NCBI GenBank assembly: GCA_000999715.1
Contig: LCGL01000001.1
Span: 195,139 to 259,138 of the forward strand
Length of the DNA: 64,000 nt
Reading direction: 5' to 3'
Source of the DNA: Candidatus Falkowbacteria bacterium GW2011_GWF2_43_32
Lineage (GTDB): Bacteria; Patescibacteriota; Patescibacteriia; Patescibacteriales; UBA12465
Within the stretch, counting starts at the first letter, position 1, and each line of letters opens with the position of its first letter. The translations under genes and the position numbers were made by a program. The notes below the pieces were generated by a model. The model saw only the letters and a list, made by a program, of their open reading frames with translations. It had not been told where the DNA came from and made no database searches. Of this stretch, positions 3,695 through 60,713 are shown one piece after another.

Positions 3695-6600
3695 TTATGG
3701 GCAATCATCCAAATAACATCTCCATCTATCCCAATTGTCTACAATCTTAATTTTGATGATATAAGGTGCATCCCTTTTGATGTAGTAATGATAAAAAGCG
3801 TGCGGTGTGGCAATATCCGGACGATGATCTTCGCCGGTAACGGACTGAAGTCCGGAATTATCGCCCCAATCAATCACGATGTGATCCAGCGGCTGTTGTT
3901 CTTTATCTACCGTCGTGTTGAAAGACAGCACATAAACGCCGGAACTTTTTACCGTCGCGGAGCCATTGCTTAAAGGCAGACCGTTCATTTTAACATTAGC
4001 TATTTGTGGCAGGACACTGCAGAAGCTGTTGGGGTTAACCCGTGAATCGGTAGGAGAGCATAACGACGGATAAGCGTCACTGTCACTACCCCCAACCCAA
4101 GTAAAACTAAGATCGGAAGCGGAAGCAGAAGCGGACTGATAACCGGAGCTGGATAAATAACTATAATGAGAATATTGCTTATAGAATATATTCCTTAAAA
4201 CCTTTTCATTATCTGCTTTAGAATGAGCAATATCTGTCTGTAGCGGCGTCGTCCACAATCTCTGACATACACCATAGTCTCCGCAACTTTTATCGTTTAC
4301 TTCATAAACGGTCTGAGTCGTGTTCGGATCGTAAATACAGAAAACGTTGAGATTGCCGCTACACTGGCCGATATTGACACAGCCCGCTTCTCCGTAAGAA
4401 CAGCCATAAGGACGACCGGCCAAAATATCATTGGCCTCGGAATATTGGCTGCGCAAATTAATCGCCGCATGACCGACTAATTGCGTATCGCTCGGCAATA
4501 TGGCGGCGCCAAAAGGAACGTCTTCGCGATTGCGACCATATTTTAAAATGTTACCGTAATAGGAAAGGAAAAATTGGGGAGTATTATCAAGCGACGAACT
4601 CGGCCCCACCCGTTCCACCCAGGCTTTATTGTTCCCTGCGCTGTCCACCAATTGCGTAAAACGATTACACTGAATTTTAAATTGTTTGTCCTCATCATCG
4701 GTATCAAAAAATTTTAAAGCACCTTCGTGATTCATGCCGGTCTTAAAAACGGCAATAGGCGGATCATAATTGGTAGACTCATTAATATTATTTACCGTAT
4801 CATCAGGAGGATCATCGGCAAGATTTGTAACAACTAAACTTCCGCTATATGGCACCCAGGCATAGGCCAAAAACTCAATTTCATCAACACAGGCGGAGGA
4901 ATCGGCGATGTCCCCCATGTCAATCATATTAGATTGGTTAGCCAAAATAGTCGGACCGGCAATCCGGGTACTAGAATCTCCTTTCGGCACACAATAAAGC
5001 ACATAGCGTACTTTATTATTACTGCTCACTTCCCGGCTAGATATCAGCTTATAACTGCTGGTATCGACACAATAATCCTCAACAAGAGCATCCTTAAGAT
5101 AAACATATCTTTCATAATCATCGCTATCGCTGTCACTATGATCACAACCGAACGAAGCCCCCACCCTATTCTTCAAATCCCAACAAGCATTACCGGTGCA
5201 ATCATCCTTCTCATTATCAAGCCACTTCTTAACCGCCGTGGCCTGTACTTTTTTCACCAACTGAAAATCTCCGTCCGCTTCCGTACAATAATACAAAGGA
5301 AATTTACCGTTATACCCGAGCGTTTGACTGGAGCGGCCGGTAAAGCCGAGCTTGTCAACCGGATACCACATGGCGCAAACCTTGGGATTCAAAGGATCAT
5401 ATTGCAGACAATAACCGTACAAACCGTCTTCGACCACATTATTATTGAAAGACGTGCAAGTCAAACTGGTGGAATTCGGATAAAGACGACAATCTTTAGC
5501 CACATAATCAAAAGCCTCGTTGCCGGTATTCGCAATCTGCAGAACCGGCTCAATATTGATATCGTCAAAATAAACGGTCGTGTCAGAACTTAACACGATT
5601 TTGATATTGCGATGTGCACCGGTATTCAAGCGATGAACTTTACGCTCCCACCCGTTTCGGGCACTATCAATAAATTCGGCGATTACCGCCTCGCTATCAG
5701 CATCTTGAATAGTCACTGTCGCCGATAAAACAGTCCCCTTGGTATTTAACAAATAATTAAGGTAATAATAACTTCCCTCTTCAACCAGAAGAGATGAACC
5801 GACTGTCACTTGCGTTTTGGCCGGTACTCCGAGATAGCCTCGGCCGTGTGCCGGATAATCGGTCGGCGCCTCGACAGGCTCCAAAACAAATAGACCATTG
5901 GGCGCACTACCATCGTTAGTTTCAAAATCAAAATGCGCCTCGGTGTCCAAGCCGACTTCTTTCATGTTGCCCAAATAATAGCGATCCAGTAAAGCGTAGC
6001 CGGCAGAATTCTTGTCGGTATTGACGTCAAACTGATGTGTCAAAGCCGTTTCCGAAGGGTCAACGAAATGCTGACATTCATTCTTATCGTCCAAACGATC
6101 GCACTCGCCGAGCGCGTAGCAAACTTTCTGACCGGCGGCATCCAAGCCGTAAGTGACGCAATCCAACCAAGAAGCACAGACCCTATCCGGCCGAACTTTA
6201 ATCAACTGATTGGCCGTACACGAACCGGCGACTGTCGAATCGCAAACTTCGGGAGACGCGCCGTCTGCCGTGGCATAGGCGTCCCAACCGGTACTTAAAT
6301 CGGCCAATCCGGCGGCGCCGTTGATAACGCGCTCGTTAAACAAAACGCAACCGTTATCCAACTTCACCGTCCCGTTACAATCGGTTTTATTGACGCTCTC
6401 TTGATGTTGATAATCAATAATCAATTCTTTGACGGTAATGGTTATTCCCGTTTTTCCGCCCGATAAGCGCGCCAAGGAATTATTCAAAGAATTAAAAATA
6501 ATCGGTTGGCCAAGGCCATCAGATATTTCCAAATTAAGCGTCGCCGTCCCTAAAGTATTATCGGCTAACAAAGGACGAACCGTTTTCGAGAAATCCAATT

Positions 6601-9600
6601 CCACCATACCGCTGATGGCACTATCGGTATTGGAGCTGACACTGAGGCTATATAGCTTGTTTTGTTTTAACGCAATCACTTGTTGCGTCTCGTTCAAAGA
6701 AGTTTTATTCCAGCTATTGCCGCTAGTATTGCCCCAACCCTCGGCCACTTCATTCGTCAATTGATAACTCGGATTGGCGACACTATTAACGGAAAACTGG
6801 CTGACCGGATCAATATATTCACTGCAACCGGCCGCGGCCGGTTCGCATAAACCGACAGCTTGATCGGGAGTCGGAATTTGATTGCCGCTTCCTCCCCAGC
6901 CGATAGTTTTGAAATAAGAAACCGAGCAAGGATAATCATTGTTATCTATCACGCAGGCCTTGTCGCCGCAATCGGTGTTGCCGGCACAAATCGCCGTACC
7001 GCTCTCCGCTCCGTTAATCGTTCCGTCGCCGTTAGAATCGCAACGCTTGACCGGAACTTTATACCAAGCTTTGCCGGAAATATTCGGATCTCGACTGGTA
7101 CGATATAGACAGGCGTCAAAACCCGGATTTTTGAAATAAGAACTGTCGCCCCGGGCATCTCGCCATTCTTCACAGCCGACATCCTCCGGACCGCAAAGAA
7201 TTTGTTCATACTGATTCGGATTGTTTCTCTTGAACACGTCGGACCAAGCCGTAATTTGCGAACTTACTTGACCTTCGCCCAAACGACTGCAACCCAAATC
7301 GGCGGCATGACATTGACGCGAAGGATCATAAACGGCATACACGGCGCTGTCGGCCGCCACGGCCACGCAATTCTGATCATCGGTATCGCAAGATTCTACG
7401 GCGACGCCATTCAGCCAATAAGCTTCATCGGGTGACGTATAATTTTTCGTTTCAATCATCTGTTCGCAACCGACGGCCGAATCCGAACACAGTTGCGTAA
7501 ATTTACGCAGGTTATGCTTTAAACCGCCGCGATCGGTATACTGAGAACAACCGAGATTATATTCCGATCCTTGATAATCGTCAAAAATGTCATAATAGCA
7601 AGTATCCGGAACTTGACTGGATTCTTCAAGCAAATAATAACGATCGGTGATTTCCGACAAAATCAAATTATCAAGATAAAATTCGTCACTGCCGGAAACG
7701 GCCAGAATTTCATTTTCGCCGACAGCATGATCCAGCGCCGCTAAATTAACCTGATAAACATTCCATTCGTTGCCGGCTTTCAAAACGAGTGGCGTGGCGG
7801 TAAAAGAAGCGACGGCGTCCGTGGCCGGATTCAAGAAATAAATTTGAACACTCGTCTGGTTGGCGGCCCGAGCCAAGAACTTCAGACTATAAGCGGCTTT
7901 TTCTCTGACCAAACCGCTTACTTTAATTTGCGCCACCACCTTTTCATTGGCCAAAATTTGTTTAATCAAAGGCGTCTTGACCAGATTCCCTCCCGGATCA
8001 ACACCGCAACTGGAGATGTCGGTGTATTGCAAAGAATGTCCGTCTTTACTATTAGCAATCGTACTTAAGGCAACGCCGCCGACACAATTAGAATGCCAAG
8101 AGCCCAAACCGTTTTCAAAATCATAAGAAGCGATTAAACGAACATTACTGCCGTTATTGCCGTTATATTCGCGACAGCCGTTTTCACTGGCGCGGCAAGT
8201 CTGGCCCTCTCCCGGAATGGCCAAATAAGTACAAGCTTTATTGACATTATCCCAGACACCGCCGTTCAAGCAGACATAACAATCGCCCGTGGCCGCATCC
8301 CAATAACGGTCATTGCGACCGGCCATGGCGCATTTTCTGGAAGTATTCAAACTGCTGTCAATATTTTTCTCGCTCAGGCGATAAGGGTGGCAATCTTCGG
8401 AACAAGTTATCACCCGTGACAATAAATGATAGGCGATTGCTCCGGAAACGTTATAAAACTCGCGGCAATCCGGATTGAAGTCCGGATGATTTACCGGCAA
8501 ATTATAAATGGTCGCATTGCATAAACTGCTGTCGTCGGCGGTCACTGCCGGTAAACCGGCGGCCGTTTTCTTCAAACTATAAGCTTTCAATTGATAACCG
8601 TCGCCGCGTCCCTCCCAAGAATAGAAAGACGCGCAAGCGGTTACGCTCGGTTTAATGCATTGCTTGAGCGAAGTGTAATATTCTTTTTGTTCCCCACCCT
8701 GCGTCAAAGCGTCCAAATTGGTAAATTCATTGCAACCGGCCGCTTCCGCTTTACAAACCGTCGCCGTTTCCGGAATCAAATTTTCAACGCGCGGCGAATT
8801 GAAATAACTTTCTTTGGTGACATAAACATCGTAATTCAAACATTCTCCCCGACAATAATCGCTGTCCAAGGCTTTGGCCGGCACAGAAAAAATATCATTG
8901 ACCGAACTGAACAATTCACAACCGACTTCATCTTTATTGCAACGGCGGGCATAATCATCACAAACCGCCGGCGCATCATTTTTCAAACGATAATCTTTGC
9001 TGGCGCCGGTCGCATTCACATAACAAATTTCTTCCAAATACGCCGGCAATAATTTTTCATAAACTTGAGCGGGGGCGTCATTGGAATAATATCCGTAAGA
9101 ATTATAATCGGTATCCCAGCCGCCCACTTCAAATTTAAGATTTTTAATATAAAAAACCACTTGACCGGAACCCGCTCCGCTGATAGTGAAGTTCGGTTCG
9201 CTATAAGCCAAATCGGACGGACGAGTGATGGTCAAATGTTGCCAAGAATTTTTGACGGTTGTCGGGGCGATAAAGCCGTCCCCTTCCGGACCGGCAAACA
9301 AGCGGACAATATCGGCGTTGGCCAAATAAACATCCACGCTTACCGTATAAGCTTGACCGAAAATCGTTTGAAAATTATCGGGCAAAAGAGAGTGAGCGGC
9401 ATTGGACACAATATTGGCCGTTGAAGATCTTCCCGACTTGGCCTGAGAAACAACCTTCATGGCCTTGCCGCTCAATCCGCCCGGCGATTTGGCGGCATCA
9501 ACGACGGTCAATGTCGGCACGGCACTGCCGGAAACATACCAGTCGTGCAACAGGCCGCCGGAGGAAGCATCGTTAATTTCTTCATTGGCAAAATCGGCGT

Positions 9601-11731
9601 CCTTGACCAAATTGGTTCCCCAAGTCGGCTTAACGCGCATCAACTCCGTACAGCCCTCGTCTTGAGCGCGACAAGTTCCCAAATTCTTGTTCAAATATAA
9701 ACTGGAAAGACCGTTCCAGGCAATCGTTCCGTCTACGGCATAATCACCGGACAAAGAATATTGCCGACAACCGGAAGTTTCCGGATTGCAAGTTCCATAG
9801 TCCAAAGTATTTTCCAAATAAGCGACGGTTTGACCAGAAACGGCATTGGTGAAAGCTTGGCAAGTATTATAAATCGGCTCGCAGGAATCCGCTTCAAAGC
9901 TCCAAACTCTTTTCTCTTGATTGCAATAACCGTAGACTTCGCAATCGCCGTTGTCCTTTTCTTTGATACAACTCTGCTCGTCGGCGCAATATTCTTCGGC
10001 GCGGAGAATATTCACTTCGCTGGAAATGCCGCCACTGCCGTCGGCCAGCGGAGTAATCGAAGGGGCACCGATAATCTGTGCGCCGACACCTTCCTTGGCG
10101 CAATAATTTAACGGCGCTTTCAATACCCAATTAGGATCAATCAATCCCTGACACCAAGCCTGATCGCGTGTATCAAATTCCGAACTGAATTGTGCATAAC
10201 CGTCCCCGGGATCGAAACAAGAAACTAAATCGTTCAAAGTCGCTTTGACGCTTTTGTTCGCCAAACTGGAAACGGCTTTCTCCCAGCCGACCGGCAAAAT
10301 GCGATACTTGCGTAAAATGGCAATATTGCGTTCGGTATAGCTGTTATTGTAGCTGTCACCCTTACTGTCAAGCGTAAATTGCCAATCGCCGTGCAAATAA
10401 CCGTTCTCCAAGGCTTCGGCCACGGTTTGCTTTTCGGAAATTCCTTGCATGAATTTGCTGTCAATCACGCAATCCGTCGGACCGGGATTATCCTTATTTA
10501 TACAGCTGGATAATTTTACCAAAATATCATAATTAGCCTGCGTATCAAACTTCGGTTGAATCAATTGACGGGTGATTTCTTTGACATTACCAACGCTATA
10601 TTGGGGAGAGCCTTCTTCGTCCCCGACCAAACCGGCGGTCACGGAGCCGGCGGTTTTGGTTTTCTTGCCCAATTCCTGCATCAAGCGATTGAATCCGGCA
10701 ATGCTCAATTGATTCAAAAATACATTGGCGGAGTCTACCAAAATATCGCCGGTCAAACGACCGAAATTTGCTTCTTGAATGGCCTGAGCTTGATCCAATT
10801 GTCTTTCCGCCTGACCGGGAATGCCGACTATACTGCCGGCGGCATCGGTTACATCCGCCCAACCTTTGTTGACGGTGAATTTCGTGTTGGCATTTTCCGT
10901 ATCAATAATCGCCTTACTGGATAAATCGGTACGGGCCAACAAATAAATGCCGAGATCGTTGGACACCGGATTGAAAATATTGGAAAAATCGTCAAGATAA
11001 TCTTTATTTTGCAAATCGGTGATTTTTTTATTGATATCCGTCTGCCAAGTCTTAACCATTTCCGAAGCGGTACAGTTAGGCGCCGGCGCGCGCGTCTGTT
11101 CTATCAAACCTAAACTGATTTTCAGTTTCGCCTCCAAGGACGAAGGACTGCAAACGTTAAAAGAAGGAGAGGCTTGCATATCCGATTGTATGCCACCGAC
11201 TTTACCTGAAGCACAGGCCGTATTTTGCTTATCGCAATTATCAAAACATCCCTGAAGCCTTATTAAGTCGCCGCTAATGGTCTCCTTACAGTTTTCCTGA
11301 CATTTCTTCAACTCATCTCCGCACTCCATCCCGGCGGTATTCAAATTATTGACAAAGCTTTCCACAAAGGTTCCGGCCGCTTCATCGCCGATTTGCGACA
11401 TATAGTCGCCGAAGTCCTGCGTGATATACAAAGGTTTTTGTCCACTGCCGGAAGCGGCGATATAATTGGCGGCATCGTAAGCGATTTTGTTGAGCGCCGT
11501 ACTGAGGGTGCGCTGAAAAGCGATGGAACCAGCTTTTTGCAAAGATCTGGCCACTATTCTTAAAAAAGTATTTTCAATATTAGCAATCGCCTGATTAAGA
11601 TCGAGCTGAGCTTGCGCCGGTTTGAGCGGCATAACCATCGTCGTCAACAACAAAAAACCCGCTAAAAAAATACCGGTTTTTCCAAGCAGATTGAAATTTT
11701 TTTTCTTTTTTGACACCAAAGAAAAATTCAT
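3695..11731 (-). CDS. Giant secreted or cell-surface Cys-rich protein (2678 aa) with three CBM4_9-like beta-sandwich modules and a PKD-like C-terminal domain
   Basis: A single uninterrupted ORF. The N-terminal signal/anchor is GIFLAGFLLLTTMVMPLKPAQAQ. I count about 94 Cys by hand. At least nine copies of C-x5-G-C-x-[EQR]-[FYLWM] occur, e.g. VCKAEAAGCNEF, TCRASENGCREY, LCEPAAAGCSEY. Three modules start like NLVKDADFANEE / SYDFENGLGSW / HFDFETNDGS and end like FYIKNLKFEV / FYLDNLILSE / VYFDDINIEP. They map to about nt 9115-9620, 7650-8130 and 5545-5940. The C-terminal IVIDWGDNSG...HAFYHYY...YIIKIKIVDNW (about 3698-3970) is PKD-like. Confidence 0.9.
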   Translation of the reverse strand: MNFSLVSKKKKNFNLLGKTGIFLAGFLLLTTMVMPLKPAQAQLDLNQAIANIENTFLRIVARSLQKAGSIAFQRTLSTALNKIAYDAANYIAASGSGQKPLYITQDFGDYMSQIGDEAAGTFVESFVNNLNTAGMECGDELKKCQENCKETISGDLIRLQGCFDNCDKQNTACASGKVGGIQSDMQASPSFNVCSPSSLEAKLKISLGLIEQTRAPAPNCTASEMVKTWQTDINKKITDLQNKDYLDDFSNIFNPVSNDLGIYLLARTDLSSKAIIDTENANTKFTVNKGWADVTDAAGSIVGIPGQAERQLDQAQAIQEANFGRLTGDILVDSANVFLNQLSIAGFNRLMQELGKKTKTAGSVTAGLVGDEEGSPQYSVGNVKEITRQLIQPKFDTQANYDILVKLSSCINKDNPGPTDCVIDSKFMQGISEKQTVAEALENGYLHGDWQFTLDSKGDSYNNSYTERNIAILRKYRILPVGWEKAVSSLANKSVKATLNDLVSCFDPGDGYAQFSSEFDTRDQAWCQGLIDPNWVLKAPLNYCAKEGVGAQIIGAPSITPLADGSGGISSEVNILRAEEYCADEQSCIKEKDNGDCEVYGYCNQEKRVWSFEADSCEPIYNTCQAFTNAVSGQTVAYLENTLDYGTCNPETSGCRQYSLSGDYAVDGTIAWNGLSSLYLNKNLGTCRAQDEGCTELMRVKPTWGTNLVKDADFANEEINDASSGGLLHDWYVSGSAVPTLTVVDAAKSPGGLSGKAMKVVSQAKSGRSSTANIVSNAAHSLLPDNFQTIFGQAYTVSVDVYLANADIVRLFAGPEGDGFIAPTTVKNSWQHLTITRPSDLAYSEPNFTISGAGSGQVVFYIKNLKFEVGGWDTDYNSYGYYSNDAPAQVYEKLLPAYLEEICYVNATGASKDYRLKNDAPAVCDDYARRCNKDEVGCELFSSVNDIFSVPAKALDSDYCRGECLNYDVYVTKESYFNSPRVENLIPETATVCKAEAAGCNEFTNLDALTQGGEQKEYYTSLKQCIKPSVTACASFYSWEGRGDGYQLKAYSLKKTAAGLPAVTADDSSLCNATIYNLPVNHPDFNPDCREFYNVSGAIAYHLLSRVITCSEDCHPYRLSEKNIDSSLNTSRKCAMAGRNDRYWDAATGDCYVCLNGGVWDNVNKACTYLAIPGEGQTCRASENGCREYNGNNGSNVRLIASYDFENGLGSWHSNCVGGVALSTIANSKDGHSLQYTDISSCGVDPGGNLVKTPLIKQILANEKVVAQIKVSGLVREKAAYSLKFLARAANQTSVQIYFLNPATDAVASFTATPLVLKAGNEWNVYQVNLAALDHAVGENEILAVSGSDEFYLDNLILSEITDRYYLLEESSQVPDTCYYDIFDDYQGSEYNLGCSQYTDRGGLKHNLRKFTQLCSDSAVGCEQMIETKNYTSPDEAYWLNGVAVESCDTDDQNCVAVAADSAVYAVYDPSRQCHAADLGCSRLGEGQVSSQITAWSDVFKRNNPNQYEQILCGPEDVGCEEWRDARGDSSYFKNPGFDACLYRTSRDPNISGKAWYKVPVKRCDSNGDGTINGAESGTAICAGNTDCGDKACVIDNNDYPCSVSYFKTIGWGGSGNQIPTPDQAVGLCEPAAAGCSEYIDPVSQFSVNSVANPSYQLTNEVAEGWGNTSGNSWNKTSLNETQQVIALKQNKLYSLSVSSNTDSAISGMVELDFSKTVRPLLADNTLGTATLNLEISDGLGQPIIFNSLNNSLARLSGGKTGITITVKELIIDYQHQESVNKTDCNGTVKLDNGCVLFNERVINGAAGLADLSTGWDAYATADGASPEVCDSTVAGSCTANQLIKVRPDRVCASWLDCVTYGLDAAGQKVCYALGECDRLDDKNECQHFVDPSETALTHQFDVNTDKNSAGYALLDRYYLGNMKEVGLDTEAHFDFETNDGSAPNGLFVLEPVEAPTDYPAHGRGYLGVPAKTQVTVGSSLLVEEGSYYYLNYLLNTKGTVLSATVTIQDADSEAVIAEFIDSARNGWERKVHRLNTGAHRNIKIVLSSDTTVYFDDINIEPVLQIANTGNEAFDYVAKDCRLYPNSTSLTCTSFNNNVVEDGLYGYCLQYDPLNPKVCAMWYPVDKLGFTGRSSQTLGYNGKFPLYYCTEADGDFQLVKKVQATAVKKWLDNEKDDCTGNACWDLKNRVGASFGCDHSDSDSDDYERYVYLKDALVEDYCVDTSSYKLISSREVSSNNKVRYVLYCVPKGDSSTRIAGPTILANQSNMIDMGDIADSSACVDEIEFLAYAWVPYSGSLVVTNLADDPPDDTVNNINESTNYDPPIAVFKTGMNHEGALKFFDTDDEDKQFKIQCNRFTQLVDSAGNNKAWVERVGPSSSLDNTPQFFLSYYGNILKYGRNREDVPFGAAILPSDTQLVGHAAINLRSQYSEANDILAGRPYGCSYGEAGCVNIGQCSGNLNVFCIYDPNTTQTVYEVNDKSCGDYGVCQRLWTTPLQTDIAHSKADNEKVLRNIFYKQYSHYSYLSSSGYQSASASASDLSFTWVGGSDSDAYPSLCSPTDSRVNPNSFCSVLPQIANVKMNGLPLSNGSATVKSSGVYVLSFNTTVDKEQQPLDHIVIDWGDNSGLQSVTGEDHRPDIATPHAFYHYYIKRDAPYIIKIKIVDNWDRWRCYLDDCP

Positions 11732-54799: not shown

Positions 54800-54873
54800 G
54801 GGCCCTTAGCTCAGCTGGCTAGAGCACCTGCTTTGCAAGCAGGGGGTCATCGGTTCGAATCCGATAGGGTCCA
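54800..54873 (+). tRNA. tRNA-Ala (anticodon UGC); CCA is not encoded
   Basis: Hand-folded cloverleaf. Acceptor stem is GGGCCCT / AGGGTCC with the G3:U70 alanine identity pair. Anticodon stem is CCTGC / GCAGG with loop TTTGCAA. T-arm is ATCGG-TTCGAAT-CCGAT. The discriminator is A. Confidence 0.95.
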
Positions 54874-54885
54874 CAAACAAAGAAA

Positions 54886-54913
54886 ATTCCTAACGTATGT
54901 TAGGAATTTTTTT
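54886..54913 (+). terminator. Intrinsic terminator after tRNA-Ala
   Basis: 9-bp stem ATTCCTAAC / GTTAGGAAT with loop GTAT, followed by a run of 6 T. Confidence 0.7.
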
Positions 54914-54928
54914 GTTTATGATTCGTAG

Positions 54929-55090
54929 CTATCGGATTCGAACAGGCGGCGAGCGAAATAAAGGAGGAACGAAGTGACGACGAATATTTCGCGACGATAA
55001 ACGCGACCCGAGGGAGCGTTTAGCGGGTCCGCCGCGACAACGAGCGATGCGGCTGAGCATCGCGAGGCGGAAATCCGATAGGGTCCACCG
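54929..55090 (+). other. tRNA-Ala 3'-half-like sequence interrupted by a GC-rich, hairpin-dense insert of about 130 nt (element A)
   Basis: ATCGGATTCGAAC (54931..54943) mimics the tRNA T-arm ATCGGTTCGAATC. AATCCGATAGGGTCCAC (55072..55088) is an exact 17-nt copy of tRNA positions 54858..54874. Between them lie four hairpins: GCGAAATA / TATTTCGC, TAAACGC / GCGTTTA, GCGATGC / GCATCGC, and the enclosing CCGCC / GGCGG. Confidence 0.6.
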
Positions 55091-55096
55091 ACTAAT

Positions 55097-55125
55097 AAAA
55101 CTCCATAGAATATGGGGTTTTATTT
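55097..55125. terminator. Intrinsic terminator-like hairpin after element A
   Basis: CTCCATA-GAA-TATGGGG (one G:U pair), with AAAA upstream and TTTTATTT downstream. Confidence 0.5.
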
Positions 55126-55131
55126 ATTATA

Positions 55132-55159
55132 TTGACATTATTATAATTTTTGCTATAAT
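55132..55159 (+). promoter_or_regulatory. Near-perfect sigma70 promoter with an extended -10
   Basis: TTGACA (55132..55137), 16-nt spacer ending in TGC, then TATAAT (55154..55159). The 66-nt AT-only leader carries five TGTA(T/A)A repeats at 55159, 55179, 55189, 55208 and 55218, in phase at about 10 bp. It also carries the palindrome TACAA-TAT-TTGTA. Confidence 0.6.
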
Positions 55160-55225
55160 GTATATATTAATATAAAAATGTATAGATTTGTATAGTTTTA
55201 CAATATTTGTATATATTTGTAATAT

Positions 55226-55972
55226 ATGATAAATAATCAGAATAAATTAATAAAAATTAATGAAGCCGCAAAAATACTTAATATTTCCATACAAACATTA
55301 AGACGTTGGGATGAATCTGGGCGGCTTAAGGCTATCCGGGAAAACCAGAGAGGCCACCGCTATTATAAGTTTTCCGATATTCAACTAATGACGAACAATA
55401 TTTTTTCTTTAGCTGAAGAATGGATTTCAAGACAAACGGCCAGCGAGCCGGATAACCAATTTTTTTGTCTCGACAGCCCGACTTTTCAAGCTAGGCTCAG
55501 CCGCTTAGAAATGGCCATGCAAAAAATTCCTGAACTCAAAAAAGATTTTTCTTTTATCAGTTCAATGGTCGGGGAAATCGGCAATAACTCTTTTGATCAT
55601 AATTTGGGCTCTTGGCCAGATATTAGAGGTATCTTTTTCGCCTACGATTTAAATAAAAAACAAATTGTTTTGGCCGATAGAGGCCAGGGCATTCTAACCA
55701 CCCTTAAAAGAGTCCGGCCGGCCTTGATGAATGATGGCGAGGCCCTGCGCATGGCCTTTACGGAAAAAGTCTCTGGACGAGCTCCGGAGAACCGAGGAAA
55801 TGGCTTAAAATATGTTAAAAAAGTCGTGGTAGATATTAAAAAAGATATATCATTAAAATTATATTTCCAATCGGGCAATGCTTTTACTATTTTAGATGAT
55901 AAAACGATTAATCTAAAGATCGAACAAGCCGCTATACCCTTCCGAGGGTGTTTAGCTTTAATTAATTTTTAA
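55226..55972 (+). CDS. MerR/excisionase-type HTH fused to a minimal GHKL (RsbW/SpoIIAB-like) ATPase/kinase domain
   Basis: 248 aa. The N-terminus IKINEAAKILNISIQTLRRWDESGRLKAIRENQRGHRYY is an HTH. The C-terminus has the N-box GEIGNNSFDHN, the G1 box LADRGQGI and the G2 box NRGNGLKYV. Confidence 0.8.
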   Translation: MINNQNKLIKINEAAKILNISIQTLRRWDESGRLKAIRENQRGHRYYKFSDIQLMTNNIFSLAEEWISRQTASEPDNQFFCLDSPTFQARLSRLEMAMQKIPELKKDFSFISSMVGEIGNNSFDHNLGSWPDIRGIFFAYDLNKKQIVLADRGQGILTTLKRVRPALMNDGEALRMAFTEKVSGRAPENRGNGLKYVKKVVVDIKKDISLKLYFQSGNAFTILDDKTINLKIEQAAIPFRGCLALINF

Positions 55973-55976
55973 TAAT

Positions 55977-56264
55977 ATGCTCATTGAATTAAAAAAATTT
56001 GGCAATTTATTAACTTCTCGACAACTCGGAAAAGAATCTTTAGCCGCTCTGTCTCCTCAACTTCCTAAAGAAAATACTGAAAAAATTATTGTTGATTTTT
56101 CAGAAATTACAACTTTTTCTCCTTCCTGGGGAGACGAATTCCTGTCGCCTCTTCAACAAAAATATCAAAATAATTTATTCTTAAAAAATACTAATAATCC
56201 TTCGGTAAAAGCAACTATCGAAATTCTGGAAGAAACGAACCAAGTAAAATTTCAGGTAGAATAA
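55977..56264 (+). CDS. STAS-like small protein (DUF4325-type)
   Basis: 95 aa, starting 4 nt after the upstream stop. IIVDFSEITTFSPSWGDEFLSPL matches the 'D-F-x-x-V/I ... S-x-x-D-E-F/L' pattern of STAS-like DUF4325 proteins. Unverified. Confidence 0.65.
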   Translation: MLIELKKFGNLLTSRQLGKESLAALSPQLPKENTEKIIVDFSEITTFSPSWGDEFLSPLQQKYQNNLFLKNTNNPSVKATIEILEETNQVKFQVE

Positions 56265-56283
56265 AACTTTGCTCATCCTCCTT

Positions 56284-56332
56284 GCCCAATAATTAATTTC
56301 CCCAATAATTTTGTCTAAAGAGCGGGAAATCC
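56284..56332 (+). repeat. 49-bp direct repeat, copy 1
   Basis: GCCCAATAATTAATTTCCCCAATAATTTTGTCTAAAGAGCGGGAAATCC. It matches 58420..58468 at 48 of 49 positions. Confidence 0.95.
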
Positions 56333-56358
56333 ATTTTTTAATAACCACATAATAAAAT

Positions 56359-56384
56359 AACTCCACCCAAGTGGAGTTATTTTT
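56359..56384. terminator. Bidirectional terminator shared by the convergent island modules
   Basis: 8-bp stem AACTCCAC / GTGGAGTT with loop CCAA, with A/T runs on both sides. Confidence 0.6.
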
Positions 56385-56408
56385 CTATTTATAAATAAAT
56401 TTGAACAA

Positions 56409-57278
56409 TTATTCCGACTTATGCAACAATTCATAAAATTCCGCCAACTCATTAACCTTATCAGGATCCAGAAACATTTCTTCTTGCGGCCGGTCTTGAT
56501 TATCAAAACTAATTTTTAATTCTTTAAATTCGCCGTTATCATCAGTTTGAATATCAACATTATAAGAATCGGACGGATCAAATTCGCCTCCTATTTCTTT
56601 AATATCATTAAAACCAATTTTCCCCTTATCGCCGTTCTTAACCACTAAAGCTTGTTGCAATAAAAATTCCATTGTTCCACCATGAGTGCCGGCCGGTAAT
56701 AAAACTTTTGACCCCGAGTTCAATTTTTTAGCCATTGCTTGATAATGTTTAACTACATAGGCGAAAGAACCGGCTATTTCCTTTTTGTATTGAACGGCCT
56801 CGGGAGTAGAAAGACCTATTAAATAATTAACTGTGGCCATTTGGGCTTTCTTAGCAGCAACTATTTTTTCGGCATCGGCTAATTCGTCAAAATTATCCGG
56901 TAAATTTTTATTATAAATTTCGGTATGGTTGTAAGGCCTCGGTGAAACTAATTTTTCATAACTTAAAATATCGTTAACTCTGGTTTTAAATTTTTCATCA
57001 CCGGCAATTTCGGTGGCATAAATATCAGTCGTTTCTAAAGCCCTGCCCATTTTAATATCTTCTTTAATCGGGGAGGCATTGGAACCAATAGCTTTGACAG
57101 CATCAAAATCGTCCTGTTTTATACCGCTTTCAACCGCTTTTCTTTTTGTGATATCTCGGCCTAAGTCTAATAACTGCAAATCTTTTCCACGTTCACCGTG
57201 GCGCATAAATTTAATTAATATTTTTACATTTCGTCCGAATCTTTCCTGTTGTTCTAATCCGTTATTTATTCTTTCCAT
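56409..57278 (-). CDS. Histidine phosphatase superfamily (branch 1) protein, divergent
   Basis: 289 aa. LIKFMRHGERG carries the RHG catalytic motif, and LLPAGTHGGTMEF carries the second catalytic His. Otherwise it is unlike the canonical gpmA in this window. Confidence 0.72.
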   Translation of the reverse strand: MERINNGLEQQERFGRNVKILIKFMRHGERGKDLQLLDLGRDITKRKAVESGIKQDDFDAVKAIGSNASPIKEDIKMGRALETTDIYATEIAGDEKFKTRVNDILSYEKLVSPRPYNHTEIYNKNLPDNFDELADAEKIVAAKKAQMATVNYLIGLSTPEAVQYKKEIAGSFAYVVKHYQAMAKKLNSGSKVLLPAGTHGGTMEFLLQQALVVKNGDKGKIGFNDIKEIGGEFDPSDSYNVDIQTDDNGEFKELKISFDNQDRPQEEMFLDPDKVNELAEFYELLHKSE

Positions 57279-57293
57279 AAAATTACTTACTTA

Positions 57294-58346
57294 TTATTTT
57301 TCCTTAATAATTTTTATGATACCGTTATCAGCGTCAACTTCAACTTCATCACCGTTTTTTAAGATTTGCGTGGCTGTTTTTGTTCCGATAACACAAGGAA
57401 TTTTTAACTCTCGAGAAATAATCGCCGCATGGCAAGTCAAACCGCCCTCATCGGTAATAATCGCACCGCATTTTCTAATTAAAGGCATTAACTCCGGACT
57501 AGTACTGGTCGAAACTAAAATATCTCCTTTATTAAAAGTTAGGGATTTAATTTCGTTAGTTATTATTAAGCGCACTATGCCCCGGACTAATCCGCCACAA
57601 GCGACATTTCCCTTAATAATACCAACTGATTTAGTATTTCCCTCTATTTTCTTAATAATTTTAGTCGGATCTTTTACCCAATCAACTTTTTCCACACCAT
57701 TAAGATTTTTATAGACAAAAAATTTGCCTTTATTTGAATCTGAAATCCTTTTTTGCAAATTAATATTTTTTTTGCTTAATATCTCATTTAAAGTGAGGAA
57801 ATTAACTTCCTCTTTATTTTTTAAGCCAGCTAATTTTAATTCTTTAAACGCCAACGGTATAACAACCTTATTTATCACTCTTTCATAATAGGAAACCATC
57901 CTTAATTTCTTAACTAAATTAAAAATTTTTCTATCCTTGGCTGTTTCCGTCAAGGCGTCGCCAGATCGGAAAGGCAAAACCGTACAAAGCAAAGACAATT
58001 CAATTAAAAAATCAACGGCTGATTTAAAATTTTTAAAATCATTTTTCTTAATTGCCAAGATTGCTCTTTCGTTTAAAGCCAAACCCTTTTTTAATAACCT
58101 TTCTAGCTTACTTCTCTTTTTTAAAACTAAATTACTAAAAGTCAGAAAAAGCTTCTTTTGCTCGTTTTTGTCCCGGTAATACCTTACCATTCCTTTCGGA
58201 TATTCAACCATTAAACAATTCTTGACGTTTGCCCCGGCTATCTGTCGGCACTGTTTTGAAAGATACCATTCGTGCCACAAAGAAGTCCCAAAAAGAGTAA
58301 ACGGCCTAGCAATATATAATTCCCAGTTTTTGTCCTTAATGTCCAT
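57294..58346 (-). CDS. Protein with a C-terminal PEP-utilizing-enzyme mobile (phosphohistidine swivel) domain and an unassigned helical N-terminal region of about 250 aa
   Basis: 350 aa. The C-terminus GDILVSTSTSPELMPLIRKCGAIITDEGGLTCHAAIISRELKIPCVIG matches the swivel-domain signature GGxTxHAAIxxRExxIPxVxG. No ATP-grasp or PEP-binding TIM-barrel motifs were seen. Confidence 0.78.
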   Translation of the reverse strand: MDIKDKNWELYIARPFTLFGTSLWHEWYLSKQCRQIAGANVKNCLMVEYPKGMVRYYRDKNEQKKLFLTFSNLVLKKRSKLERLLKKGLALNERAILAIKKNDFKNFKSAVDFLIELSLLCTVLPFRSGDALTETAKDRKIFNLVKKLRMVSYYERVINKVVIPLAFKELKLAGLKNKEEVNFLTLNEILSKKNINLQKRISDSNKGKFFVYKNLNGVEKVDWVKDPTKIIKKIEGNTKSVGIIKGNVACGGLVRGIVRLIITNEIKSLTFNKGDILVSTSTSPELMPLIRKCGAIITDEGGLTCHAAIISRELKIPCVIGTKTATQILKNGDEVEVDADNGIIKIIKEK

Positions 58347-58365
58347 AGATGTATAATTATCTTTT

Positions 58366-58393
58366 ATTATAGCAAAATCCGGCTATTTTTCAA
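58366..58393 (-). promoter_or_regulatory. Near-consensus sigma70 promoter with an extended -10 for the swivel/phosphatase pair
   Basis: The minus strand reads TTGAAA, a 16-nt spacer ending in TGC, then TATAAT. It lies 19 nt upstream of the ATG at 58346. Confidence 0.55.
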
Positions 58394-58419
58394 TGAAAAT
58401 TTTATTATCCAAAACCCCC

Positions 58420-58468
58420 GCCCAATACTTAATTTCCCCAATAATTTTGTCTAAAGAGCGGGAAATCC
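58420..58468 (+). repeat. 49-bp direct repeat, copy 2
   Basis: GCCCAATACTTAATTTCCCCAATAATTTTGTCTAAAGAGCGGGAAATCC, with one mismatch to copy 1. It continues directly into element B. Confidence 0.95.
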
Positions 58469-58540
58469 GCGTTTAAACGACCACAAACAACGAGCCGCGC
58501 AGTGCGCGGCGAGGGCAAAATGCCCCTAGAGACTACCAAA
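58452..58540 (+). repeat. Element B: a diverged copy of the 3' part of element A
   Basis: The shared order is hairpin ending in GCGTTTA, then CAACGAGC, a second hairpin, GCGAGG, then AAAT.CC..TAG.G.C.ACC. The second hairpin is GCGATGC/GCATCGC in A and CCGCGC/GCGCGG in B, so the sequence differs but pairing is kept. Confidence 0.5.
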
Positions 58541-58568
58541 AAACATCCGGCAATAATTAGCCGGATGT
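58538..58568 (-). terminator. Intrinsic terminator of the fic gene
   Basis: 9-bp stem ACATCCGGC / GCCGGATGT with an 8-nt loop, followed by TTTTTT on the minus strand. It lies 18 nt past the fic stop. Confidence 0.7.
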
Positions 58569-58585
58569 TTTCAAATAAATAAATC

Positions 58586-59614
58586 CTATTTTAACTTATA
58601 ATAAGTCGCCTTACCTTTACCAACTTTTTCGATAATTCCGTCAGCTATCAATTTTCTAAAATCTAAATTCCTGGTTGGCTTGGCGCGATCAGTTAAGGCG
58701 GAATAATCTCTATCGGTGATATAACCTCTCTTTTTTATATAAGCAATGATCTTTTGATGATATTCTTTCAATTCTTTTCCTGGAGAATTATTTTCTTTTT
58801 CCAATTCTTTATTGACTCGTAAAAGTTCATCAATAATGCCGTCGGTAAAATATTCTAACCAAGGGGTAAGCTCAATTCTATCTTTAATTTCATAATAATT
58901 TCCCAAAACTCCAACTTCTTGAAAATAGCGGCTAACATTTTGATTATAATAATTTTCAAAACTGAAAAGATAAAAAGTATCGAGACCCATTTTGGCCAAT
59001 AATATCTTGGTGGCTAACCTGGCAGTTCGTCCATTACCATCCACGAAGGGATGTATAACAACAAATTGCTTATGAAAAATACCGGCTAAAATTAAAGGAT
59101 CTACTATATTCTTATTTTTATCAAGATAAAAAAATAGTTCTTTAAGCAATTTCTCCACTTCTTGATAATCTGGAGGCAAATAAACAGTTTGGCGTGTTTT
59201 AGGATTGTTAACAAAAACCGGTTCTTGACGAATTTTTCCGCAACGATAGTGCTCAATTAATCCCGCGGTAATTGTCTGCTGAATATGCGATATTAATTTT
59301 GTATCAAAAACTTCTTGACCGGATTTAATCAGAGCGTTTAATTCAACCAAAGCTTTGTTATAATTTAAAACTTCTTTTTCGCTGTCTCTGGCATTCTCCG
59401 GACTATTTTTTAAAATCCTCTTTACATCCGTCAACGGTAAAGGATTGCCTTCGATGCTGGTTGAAGAAAAAGCCGAAACTTCACGAGCTCGCTGCTCCAT
59501 ATTTAACAAAACTATGCGCGAAAAATTGCGATTATTAAGCTCGCTAATAATTTCACTAATTCTTTTAATATTAGCCAATAATTTATTAGAAATTGTATAT
59601 CTGGGGTTAAACAT
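58586..59614 (-). CDS. fic: Fic-domain protein (class II type with an N-terminal autoinhibitory motif) and a C-terminal winged-helix-like region
   Basis: 342 aa. The Fic core is HPFVDGNGRTARL (HxFx[DE]GNGRxxR). Upstream, SSTSIEGN fits the inhibitory (S/T)xxxE(G/N) motif. Confidence 0.9.
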   Translation of the reverse strand: MFNPRYTISNKLLANIKRISEIISELNNRNFSRIVLLNMEQRAREVSAFSSTSIEGNPLPLTDVKRILKNSPENARDSEKEVLNYNKALVELNALIKSGQEVFDTKLISHIQQTITAGLIEHYRCGKIRQEPVFVNNPKTRQTVYLPPDYQEVEKLLKELFFYLDKNKNIVDPLILAGIFHKQFVVIHPFVDGNGRTARLATKILLAKMGLDTFYLFSFENYYNQNVSRYFQEVGVLGNYYEIKDRIELTPWLEYFTDGIIDELLRVNKELEKENNSPGKELKEYHQKIIAYIKKRGYITDRDYSALTDRAKPTRNLDFRKLIADGIIEKVGKGKATYYKLK

Positions 59615-59624
59615 ATATAGTCAT

Positions 59625-59653
59625 ATTATAGACGATTATTAGACGATTGTCAA
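59625..59653 (-). promoter_or_regulatory. Perfect sigma70 consensus promoter for fic, with direct repeats in the spacer
   Basis: The minus strand reads TTGACA-ATCGTCTAATAATCGTC-TATAAT with a 17-nt spacer. The -10 hexamer ends only 10 nt before the fic ATG and no SD is present. A third ATCGTCT copy lies just upstream (59664..59672 on the plus strand). Confidence 0.65.
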
Positions 59654-59723
59654 TAAATATAATAAGACGATAATGCCCCGGTGACCGCTAATTATTTGTA
59701 ACCGTAAATATCTTGAGAAACAA

Positions 59724-60713
59724 TCAATAAGCCAAAGCGATAATTTTGTTCAACAGTTCCCGGTAACTCATCCCTTGATCCATCATCAACATCGGAAACA
59801 TGGAAATATCGGTAAAACCCGGCAAACTGTTTATTTCATTGAGGTAAATTTTATTTTTGGCTATCAAGAAATCCACGCGGGCAAAACCGCGACAATCGGC
59901 CAAACGATAAGCTCTGGCCGCCAACGCTCTTATTTTCTCCGTTTGCGTCGGGTCGATCGCGGCGGGAACAATCATCTGCGCTTCTCCCTTCTTATATTTG
60001 TCATCGTAATCGTAAAAATCTTTAGCGAGTCGCAGTTCTCCCGGTCGAGAAACCAATAATTTTTCGTTGCCCAAGACCGCCACCTCGATTTCCCGAGGAT
60101 TGACCAAGCCTTCTTCAATGACGATTTTTTTATCATGCTTCAGGGCATTCTTGACGGCCGTCGCCAATTGCGCCGGCTTGGTTATTTTACTGATGCCCAC
60201 CGAAGAACCGGAATTGGCCGGTTTGACATAAAGCGGAAATTTAAAATCACGACAAGCTTTATTCCGGCGACGAAGCAACTCCGCTGAAGAATCAATTTGG
60301 TAATCCAAAACAGCATATCCGGTTTGATTAATTTTATCCGCCGTCAGCAAATTCTTGAAAATCGCCTTATCCATACAAACCGCCGAACTCAAAACTCGGC
60401 AACCGCAATATTTTATTTTCTGACTGTCCAAAACCGCCTGCAAAATGCCGTCTTCGCCATAACGACCGTGCGTCATCAGCAAAGCGACATCAAACAAACG
60501 GGAAAAATCTTCAACCCCGATTCTGTTCTTCGCCGATATTTTTAATTTATCGATATTCTTGATTTTATAAAATCGCCGATCTTTTTTATGCCAATAAATT
60601 AAAATCAGTTTATAACGACCGTAATCAAAATACTTGACGACATTGCCGGCGGACATAATGGACACTTCATGCTCATTGCTCGGCCCGCCAAAAAATAAAG
60701 CGATGGTTTTCAT
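59724..60713 (-). CDS. ddl: D-alanine--D-alanine ligase
   Basis: 329 aa. Contains IALFFGGPSNEHEVS, YVKPANSGSSVGISK and NEINSLPGFT. Confidence 0.93.
   Translation of the reverse strand: MKTIALFFGGPSNEHEVSIMSAGNVVKYFDYGRYKLILIYWHKKDRRFYKIKNIDKLKISAKNRIGVEDFSRLFDVALLMTHGRYGEDGILQAVLDSQKIKYCGCRVLSSAVCMDKAIFKNLLTADKINQTGYAVLDYQIDSSAELLRRRNKACRDFKFPLYVKPANSGSSVGISKITKPAQLATAVKNALKHDKKIVIEEGLVNPREIEVAVLGNEKLLVSRPGELRLAKDFYDYDDKYKKGEAQMIVPAAIDPTQTEKIRALAARAYRLADCRGFARVDFLIAKNKIYLNEINSLPGFTDISMFPMLMMDQGMSYRELLNKIIALAY

Follow-up and report, generated by a model that had tools for sequence, protein, structure and literature searches.

Islands accreted in tandem, together with the cis-mobilizable elements (CIMEs), at transfer RNA (tRNA) genes and attachment (att) sites are represented by ICESt1/ICESt3 and the CIMEs of Streptococcus thermophilus. 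Here we describe a locus of comparable layout in a stretch of 64 000 nt (64 kb; hereafter the window) from contig LCGL01000001.1 of Candidatus Falkowbacteria bacterium GW2011_GWF2_43_32, a member of the Patescibacteriota. Between a tRNA-Ala(UGC) gene and ddl we observed a chain of small modules, among them a two-gene cassette (module C) bracketed by a 49-nt direct repeat. The 49-mer is, in our judgement probably, the best-conserved core of a longer non-coding element, R, that marks module ends, and the region can rather plausibly be read head-to-tail as tRNA-Ala / A / M-R1 / C-R2 / B / Fic / ddl. Among known systems, tandem accreted islands and CIMEs at att sites are the closest counterparts, with integron arrays related by analogy.

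With accreted islands and CIMEs the locus shares an anchor at a tRNA 3′-end, atypical GC content and serial cargo blocks split by direct att-like repeats; as in CIMEs, the blocks carry no integrase of their own and block loss would proceed by recombination between internal repeats. Unlike the islands, the window modules are very small, with 0-2 genes on 0.2-2.1 kb, no integrase was seen in the arrays, R does not duplicate the tRNA 3′-end (it is a distinct sequence of 66-80 bp sharing with it only CCAC and, loosely, GAAATCC), and the junction falls after the last tRNA base, not inside the tRNA gene. As is typical for tRNA islands, the array starts (at position 54875) behind an intact tRNA-Ala gene, which is also the case in L041 and, judging by the trailer, in L045 (L and a number denote the loci and contigs that we compared with the window). 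Direct repeats with a tRNA 3′ segment and a deviation in GC content are present as well: the GC content of the array (55100-59700) is 30-38% versus about 45% in both flanks, with 35.8% in M, 34.2% in C, 32.9% in the Fic module, 43-47% in the flanking genes and 44.9% in the whole window. What was not found is an integrase gene of its own next to the att site.

Like integron arrays, the locus is built of small cargo units with one repeat at the same end, a fixed anchor and cargo of unrelated functions, and, as in sedentary chromosomal integrons, the repeats are homogeneous within a genome and divergent between species. Unlike in integrons, no intI lies beside the array, R is not an imperfect palindrome and has no folded-hairpin signature of attC, the modules have their own promoters and terminators and occur in both orientations, and the anchor is the end of a tRNA gene. 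The array is neither an integron, for which intI, the attC structure and the cassette design fail, nor a classical tRNA island, for which the integrase fails. The Xer-dependent pdif modules of Acinetobacter plasmids and the integrative mobile elements exploiting Xer (IMEX) are bounded by 28-bp XerC/XerD sites of 11-6-11 layout, often in inverted pairs. Like our modules, they have conserved short bounding sites and no recombinase of their own, the enzyme presumably being supplied in trans by the host; unlike pdif sites, R is 66-80 bp long, always direct and, by eye, without a dif-like 11-6-11 dyad. Direct repeats flanking inserted DNA beside a tRNA gene are also reminiscent of attL/attR of prophages and satellites; unlike these, the window array has neither phage genes nor an integrase. 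R was not found in 2.9 million viral contigs, where a 22-mer and two degenerate R cores gave chance matches only, and we rejected a phage origin. The 22-mer had no match in the JGI metagenome collection either, which evidently does not include the source sample, itself of JGI origin.

The repeat was first pointed out in an earlier note made from the sequence alone. Its two copies (56284-56332 and 58420-58468, spacing 2136 bp) match at 48 of 49 positions, with a single A/C mismatch at repeat position 9; at up to three mismatches the 49-mer has exactly these two matches in the window and none in 100 shuffles. The claims that the repeat is not a chance one and is linked to tRNA-like copies were borne out, a GAAATCC-type sequence (GGAAATCC) preceding the tRNA-like end of element A as well. 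The copies do enclose, as had been said, the histidine-phosphatase-fold gene, the swivel-domain gene, the promoter and the terminator. What did not hold is the statement that copy 1 stops at GAAATCC, with unrelated sequence behind it. Homology runs 17 nt further with 10 nt shared (ATTTTTTAATAACCACA versus GCGTTTAAACGACCACA): 12 diverged nucleotides (ATTTTTTAATAA in copy 1, GCGTTTAAACGA in copy 2) are followed by a common CCACA, ungapped extension of the 49-mer pair gives 66 nt at 89% identity, and 12 nt plus CCAC are conserved in L041, L045 and L050. We describe R as a lead-in (about TCATCCAAAAACCCC), the 49-mer, 12 variable nucleotides and an invariant CCAC, ∼66-80 bp in total. The lead-in of copy 2 resembles the stretch between the DUF4325 stop codon and R in L045, and copy 1 is predicted to be transcribed as the 3′ untranslated region (UTR) of the M operon. 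With a profile of R (nhmmer), matches in related loci were seen at module ends only, and neither the remainder of the window nor the core-gene parts of related loci (20+ loci) gave a further match. Cassette C is bracketed by R because M and C each end in R. The structure is not an assembly artefact, since both junctions are crossed by independent assemblies from other samples (copy 1 in L007-L009; copy 2 in L015/L016).

The second regularity that we observed concerns the ends of modules. In an alignment of 15 sequences (tRNA ends, A ends and R ends) CCAC is the sole invariant block. Each module starts right after a CCAC, be it the tRNA end or the end of the preceding module, and many modules in this sub-clade end in R...CCAC. 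Junctions lying exactly after CCAC were found in at least five contexts: A/M, M/C and C/B in the window, L041, R′ of L045, L050, and tRNA-Val/M in L057. In L041 the CCAC is followed by the trailer of that locus's own tRNA-Ala, which forms a direct repeat of 78-86 nt with the sequence behind the tRNA; in L045 the CCAC of R′ is followed by the trailer and terminator found behind tRNA-Ala in L057. Behind R1 of the window comes CCAC/ATAATAAAATAACTCCACCCAAGTGGAGTT, i.e. the tip, trailer and terminator adjoining the cassette in L033 and L019 (score reached by 3 of 1000 shuffles); the left end of C (CCAC/ATAATAAAATAACTCCACC...) matches the tRNA-Ala tip, trailer and terminator at the cassette in these two loci. 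Behind copy 2 we found CCACAAACAA, the ten bases that end and follow the tRNA-Ala of the window (54871-54880 and 58481-58490); for the array taken as a whole, this is the only flanking direct repeat with a tRNA 3′ segment. The left end of M, consisting of a trailer, a terminator and a TTGACA promoter, is preceded by A...CCAC in the window and in L041, by R...CCAC in L050 and by the CCAC of tRNA-Val in L057. In three lineages the arrays sit between the CCAC of tRNA-Ala and the native trailer. Going by these alignments, the conserved junction across genomes is CCAC, 16 nt downstream of GAAATCC, where the recurrent junction had been placed before. We also rejected GAAATCC, which is T-loop-like, as the crossover site: in L041 the 12 nt plus CCAC behind it are island-type and not those of the host T-stem/acceptor.

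Related loci show R at the ends of different modules. In L041/L042 a single R follows the DUF4325 stop codon (GTCCAATACTTAATTTCCTCAATAATTTCGTCCAAAGAGTTGGAAATCC GTTTTTTAACGA CCAC), with 42-43 of the 49 nt kept. The core synteny of L041 is the same as that of the window (RuvC-YebC-...-M23-84aa-tRNA-Ala ... ddl-polA) and its MerR protein is 86% identical; between tRNA-Ala and ddl, though, we observed only A-M-R, with one R and without cassette or Fic. In L045-L049 (MerR 85%) R again follows DUF4325, with 38-39 of 49 nt kept and the same 12 nt plus CCAC; a third, diverged copy, R′ (nhmmer E=2e-6), closes a minus-strand three-gene helix-turn-helix (HTH) module in L045. L050 has a second R upstream of M, so that a 78-nt perfect direct repeat with a spacing of 1256 nt brackets M, and in L034/L035 (cassette 68% identical) R lies upstream of the cassette promoter, oriented as copy 2 of the window. 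Within an array all R copies have the same orientation. M itself has the same two ends in L045, in L041, where it stands behind the second A element (A2), and in L050, where another R precedes it. R is thus an element that natively follows DUF4325 in several genomes and ends other modules too; it pre-existed the cassette and was not produced by cassette insertion, which was one of the possibilities raised in the earlier note. Conservation at 38-43 of 49 nt across species suggests constraint.

Mobility extends beyond the cassette as well. The A2 element of L041 carries a T-arm of the window type (CCGAT), not L041's own (CTCTT); therefore, A2-M-R moved between lineages. Cassette orthologues adjoin tRNA-Ala in L033 (87% amino acid identity), L019 (82%) and L040, and the cassette is therefore a long-standing occupant of the hot spot. 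With this observation we abandoned both the notion of a recent one-off newcomer and that of the cassette as the sole mobile part. Just upstream of the cassette promoter in L019, which comes from a Falkowbacteria metagenome-assembled genome, a 98-nt perfect direct repeat (1-98 and 848-945) brackets an open reading frame (ORF) of 213 aa, the contig ending inside the repeat. Homology of the 49-mer to this 98-nt repeat was considered and rejected as not significant (score reached by 31 of 300 shuffles).

R copies within one genome are near-identical (48/49 in the window, 78/78 in L050); between orthologous copies, 6-11 of 49 positions differ. In the window the identity is 48/49 up to and including GAAATCC and 6/12 behind it (Fisher p=1e-4), and a 99.1% strain already has a single-nucleotide polymorphism (SNP) in copy 2. 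Given this sharp drop and this SNP, the near-identity is due to a recent event or gene conversion, not to strong constraint alone. The proposal of a functional site is partly borne out by the conservation across species, but does not by itself explain the likeness of the two copies.

A possible trace of present-day turnover is L010, a 700-bp scaffold from Rifle groundwater, which is identical to window positions 55647-56332 (686 nt) and then continues with the copy-2 flank, GCGTTTAAACGACC. We regard it as a candidate cassette-less (empty-site) allele, whose reality and frequency we infer. L010 ends exactly 55 nt past the A/C SNP, and the L017 contig (99.1% strain) ends at the base beside that SNP; such ends would be expected where a de Bruijn graph branches because two alleles are present side by side. 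The repeat breaks many assemblies at exactly the 49-mer, which is of practical concern; breaks of Logan contigs at the repeat were rejected as a sign of polymorphism, as k=31 explains them fully. In one Rifle sample, the cassette contigs L002/L003 have a T>G SNP at window position 58398 and breaks near 58410 and 56503-56510; L002 (1902-1951) then runs into unrelated sequence translating like a histidine-kinase ATPase motif, and this end may be chimeric or else show the cassette in a second context. Among the assembled contigs examined, none had a circular junction. The single-R, cassette-less L041/L042 and the candidate junction of L010 support the proposal that links the repeat to recombination and to whether the cassette is there or not. 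Of the original picture, recombination at the repeat governing cassette presence has stood; what had to be changed is that the repeat predates the cassette, extends to CCAC and belongs to a conserved family of module ends.

We are inclined to see the array as a set of serial integration footprints at the CCAC 3′-end of tRNA-Ala, made by a recombinase encoded outside the array, with later exchange removing or adding C; this has, in our opinion, a somewhat better than even chance of being right. Modules would enter by Campbell-type site-specific recombination of a circular form in which R...CCAC is joined to the module's trailer, the target being the CCAC end of tRNA-Ala or of a resident module. 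Both the circular intermediate and the recombinase are entities that we infer; the enzyme would be supplied in trans, as for CIMEs. Direct R copies could then exchange within their identical 40 nt, so that the 2136-bp module C would be deleted or re-inserted with one R left behind, either by RecA-type exchange or by crossover through the same putative enzyme.

Several observations weigh against this scheme. Searches with Pfam detected no tyrosine or serine recombinase between tRNA-Ala and ddl, nor in 10 further ORFs of the window; a window-wide scan gave none among the matches listed (25 of 71 families), and the called genes of L041, L043 and L045-L062 contain no integrase or resolvase, transposases of insertion sequences (IS) aside. 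What the junctions have in common is CCAC and an A-rich stretch only, which is short for a tyrosine recombinase. There is no R after M in L051 and L057 and none beside the cassette in L040 and L019; therefore, R is not obligatory. The near-identity of R1 and R2 next to the 6/12 stretch is unexplained without gene conversion or a very recent event, and the copy count of R covers 64 kb of the genome only. For the empty-site allele there is a single scaffold of 700 bp and low coverage, the same sequence would result from a wrong join across the common 40-mer, and L002, from the same assembly, has a suspicious chimeric end. Finally, the exchange point of L010 lies inside the 49-mer (in the identical 40 nt) and not at CCAC; therefore, present-day turnover needs no dedicated enzyme.

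The last point leads to the explanation that we consider the most serious competitor, although still an unlikely one, namely that homologous recombination alone has shaped the locus. R would simply be the sequence that natively lies behind the MerR/DUF4325 operon. Following DNA uptake, homologous or illegitimate recombination would have placed the cassette, along with its tRNA tip and terminator, beside a second, truncated copy of this sequence; gene conversion would keep the 49-mers alike and RecA-type exchange would delete the cassette, with no site-specific enzyme taking part. As far as the present polymorphism of C is concerned, simple homologous exchange between the 49-bp repeats would be sufficient, and it fits L010, in which the exchange falls within the identical 40 nt. 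That no recombinase gene was found in or near any array, that the lead-in of copy 2 matches the DUF4325 stop-R stretch of L045 as a truncated M flank would, and that R is homogeneous within genomes, as gene conversion predicts, are in line with it. Left unexplained are the exact CCAC junctions in at least five independent contexts, the position of the arrays between the CCAC of tRNA-Ala and the native trailer in three lineages, and the closure of unrelated minus-strand modules by R.

R could instead be mainly an expression element (a 3′-UTR RNA, a small RNA, an operator or an insulator), with its two copies incidental to cassette mobility, which we consider improbable. In its favour, R is the 3′ UTR of the M operon, an intrinsic terminator stands within about 10-20 nt behind every copy, the sequence is conserved across species and a pairing of 6-7 bp (AUUUCC/GGAAAU) is possible. 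However, the alignment of seven R copies yields a 6-bp stem of -1.6 kcal/mol with no compensatory pair or covariation, the M modules of L051 and L057 are entirely without R, the R of minus-strand modules is found on the non-coding side, ahead of the promoter, and a SNP is already present in copy 2 of the 99.1% strain. Rfam gave no match to R at the gathering threshold and, at a relaxed E-value threshold, only FtrA over copy 1, with 30.6 bits far short of the family cut-off of 134. On the RNA level we rejected three identities: a known RNA family (at the gathering threshold Rfam reported tRNA only, and sub-threshold matches were noise), a structured RNA (single-sequence folds were unremarkable, z = -2.4 and -0.7, and the seven-copy alignment was without covariation), and a decayed whole tRNA or pseudogene (global alignments to tRNA-Ala and tRNA-Val were no better than those of shuffles, and ARAGORN and Rfam found none). 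The hairpin GCGG/CCGC proposed at the border of copy 2 and B is able to form, but it is not conserved in other copies and shows no covariation.

That R is a dispersed repeat of the miniature inverted-repeat transposable element (MITE) or repetitive extragenic palindrome (REP) kind landed on both sides, or a 49-bp target-site duplication of a transposase, is most improbable: that R is a short, conserved, non-coding repeat of several genomes and that IS elements occur near one array (L045/L046) would suit it, but the 64 kb contain just two copies, each within the island, the core-gene flanks of 20+ related loci contain none, terminal inverted repeats are missing, the copies of an array are oriented alike, a target duplication would be far shorter than 49-78 bp, and the repeat is older than the cassette insertion (L041). 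Target-site duplication by insertion of the cassette was rejected on the same ground, R being single-copy after DUF4325 in L041 and elsewhere.

One could speculate further that R-terminated mini-modules (terminator, promoter, 0-3 genes, R) make up an undescribed cassette system of Patescibacteria, in which a dedicated recombinase encoded elsewhere would take up modules at the CCAC of tRNA-Ala and of resident modules, add them to the stack and reshuffle them. By analogy with integrons, the tRNA end would be attI-like and R attC-like, A and B being cargo-less members or by-products. We hold this extension to be a tentative one, with the odds clearly against it. A homologue of MerR-GHKL (52%) was seen at the end of a phage-like contig, L137 (IMG/VR 3300022555_001665, 5575-8101), which also encodes small and large terminase subunits and a large serine recombinase of 556 aa. 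The recombinase gene lies directly upstream of the homologue and is a possible lead to the kind of enzyme that moves such modules.

Coordinates of the features of the array are collected in Table 1. M (plus strand) and C (minus strand) each have a terminator of their own and a strong sigma-70-like promoter, with 12/12 matches in M and 11/12 in C. On the 5′ side of tRNA-Ala lie genes for an 82-aa protein and an M23 peptidase. In the spacer between Fic and ddl no significant tRNA-like end was found on alignment; the outer limit given for the Fic module is a provisional one.

Table 1. Features of the array between tRNA-Ala and ddl (window coordinates)
Feature	Position	Strand	Remarks
tRNA-Ala(UGC)	54800..54874	+	ARAGORN; Rfam 69.7 bits; final CCAC (54871-54874) anchors the array
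Module A	54875..55088	+	No ORF; trailer and terminator 54880-54913; GC-rich hairpins
Module M	55089..56348	+	Trailer and terminator 55094-55124; promoter 55132-55159; two genes; R copy 1 ending in CCAC 56345-56348
MerR-HTH/GHKL-ATPase gene (M)	55226-55972	+	
DUF4325 STAS-like gene (M)	55977-56264	+	
R copy 1	56270..56348	+	Lead-in of ~14 nt, 49-mer 56284-56332, 12 nt ATTTTTTAATAA, CCAC; nhmmer E=3e-18
Module C (cassette)	56349..58484	-	2136 bp = repeat period; R copy 2 ending in CCAC 58481-58484
Bidirectional terminator with trailer (left end of C)	56354-56383		
Histidine-phosphatase-fold gene (C)	56409-57278	-	289 aa
Swivel-domain gene of phosphoenolpyruvate (PEP) utilizer type (C)	57294-58346	-	350 aa
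Promoter of C	-35 at 58393, -10 ending 58366	-	
R copy 2	58405..58484	+	Lead-in TTATCCAAAACCCCC, 49-mer 58420-58468, 12 nt GCGTTTAAACGA, CCAC; nhmmer E=6e-22
Element B	58485..58538	+	GC-rich hairpin 58494-58510; degenerate tRNA-like end GGGCAAAATGCCCCTAGAGACTACC
Fic module	58546..59614	-	Bidirectional terminator 58546-58572; SoFic-like Fic gene 58586-59614; last low-GC block before ddl
ddl	59724-60713		Borders the array

Module A holds an inverted copy of the tRNA T-arm (at about 54925-54943) and is closed by an exact direct 17-nt copy of the tRNA 3′-end (AATCCGATAGGGTCCAC; 54858-54874 and 55072-55088), ending in CCAC. Element B is homologous to the 3′ part of A: the score of the local alignment of copy 2 plus B with A was reached by 1 of 300 shuffles, while that of the A end with the B end was reached by 43 of 1000. 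A-type elements, GC-rich and without ORFs, were observed directly after tRNA-Ala in the window (54875-55088), in L041 (4468-4873) and, on the minus strand, in L019 (6018-6200); they are absent from L033 and L040. Their parts are a trailer with terminator, an inverted copy of the T-arm of the neighbouring tRNA, GC-rich hairpins and a direct copy running from the T-loop to CCAC, and the two tRNA-derived ends are able to pair (fold z = -2.5). In L041 two A elements stand in tandem, the second with the foreign, window-type T-arm. These elements may be RNA genes, cargo-less modules or recombination scars.

With regard to the cassette products, the 289-aa protein had no Pfam match. In its family the pattern RHG...R...E...H is invariant, and an AlphaFold model (pLDDT 93) matched only histidine phosphatases in the PDB; the protein is thus predicted from the model to have the histidine-phosphatase fold. 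Its gene is always accompanied by genes for PEP-utilizer swivel domains in varying number: one in the window (56409-58346), three in L019 (1074-5942) and five in L037 (755-9303), some of them fused to PPDK_N. The pair is low in GC (32-34%) in every genome. The combination of the two gene types suggests a phosphohistidine relay.

The MerR-HTH/GHKL and DUF4325 pair (55226-56264) is very widespread in Patescibacteria, with >5000 database homologues, and is nearly always found in the slot between tRNA-Ala (or tRNA-Val) and polA. M proteins are 78-87% identical across genomes in which neighbouring core proteins are 44-80% identical. The C-terminal half of the MerR-like protein has the N, G1 and G2 motifs of GHKL; its identification as an IS607-type serine recombinase was rejected, as only the HTH matches (25 bits versus a cut-off of 110) and the GHKL motifs are C-terminal. 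By its motifs the pair looks like a partner-switching kinase and antagonist fused to a DNA-binding domain. A series of TGTATA repeats (TATAATGTATATATTGATATAAAAATGTATAGATTTGTATA...) is conserved in the promoter and leader of the MerR-GHKL operon in the window (55154-55225), L041, L043, L045, L051 and L057; it is probably the operator of the operon's own HTH protein. The first of these repeats resembles a dif-like ATAATGTATA core.

The Fic protein (58586-59614) matches the SoFic model of PADLOC (E=2e-45), which makes the module farthest out in the array a candidate for an anti-phage or toxin gene. Outside the array, a single ORF of about 2680 aa fills 8 kb of the window (3695-11731, minus strand).

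Bacteria of the Candidate Phyla Radiation (CPR) have tiny genomes, and little is known on how they gain and lose accessory functions. The locus described here shows ordered and recurrent stacking of small self-contained modules beside one tRNA gene, with a common boundary element and no visible recombinase; the cargo stacked in this way comprises a MerR-kinase/STAS pair, a phosphotransfer pair and a Fic protein. Should there be an enzyme that works on R...CCAC, we would be dealing with a cassette-capture system that is new, and with one from a major radiation of uncultured bacteria. If there is no such enzyme, the locus would be a clean natural example of homologous recombination between short repeats driving gene-content polymorphism in a groundwater population.

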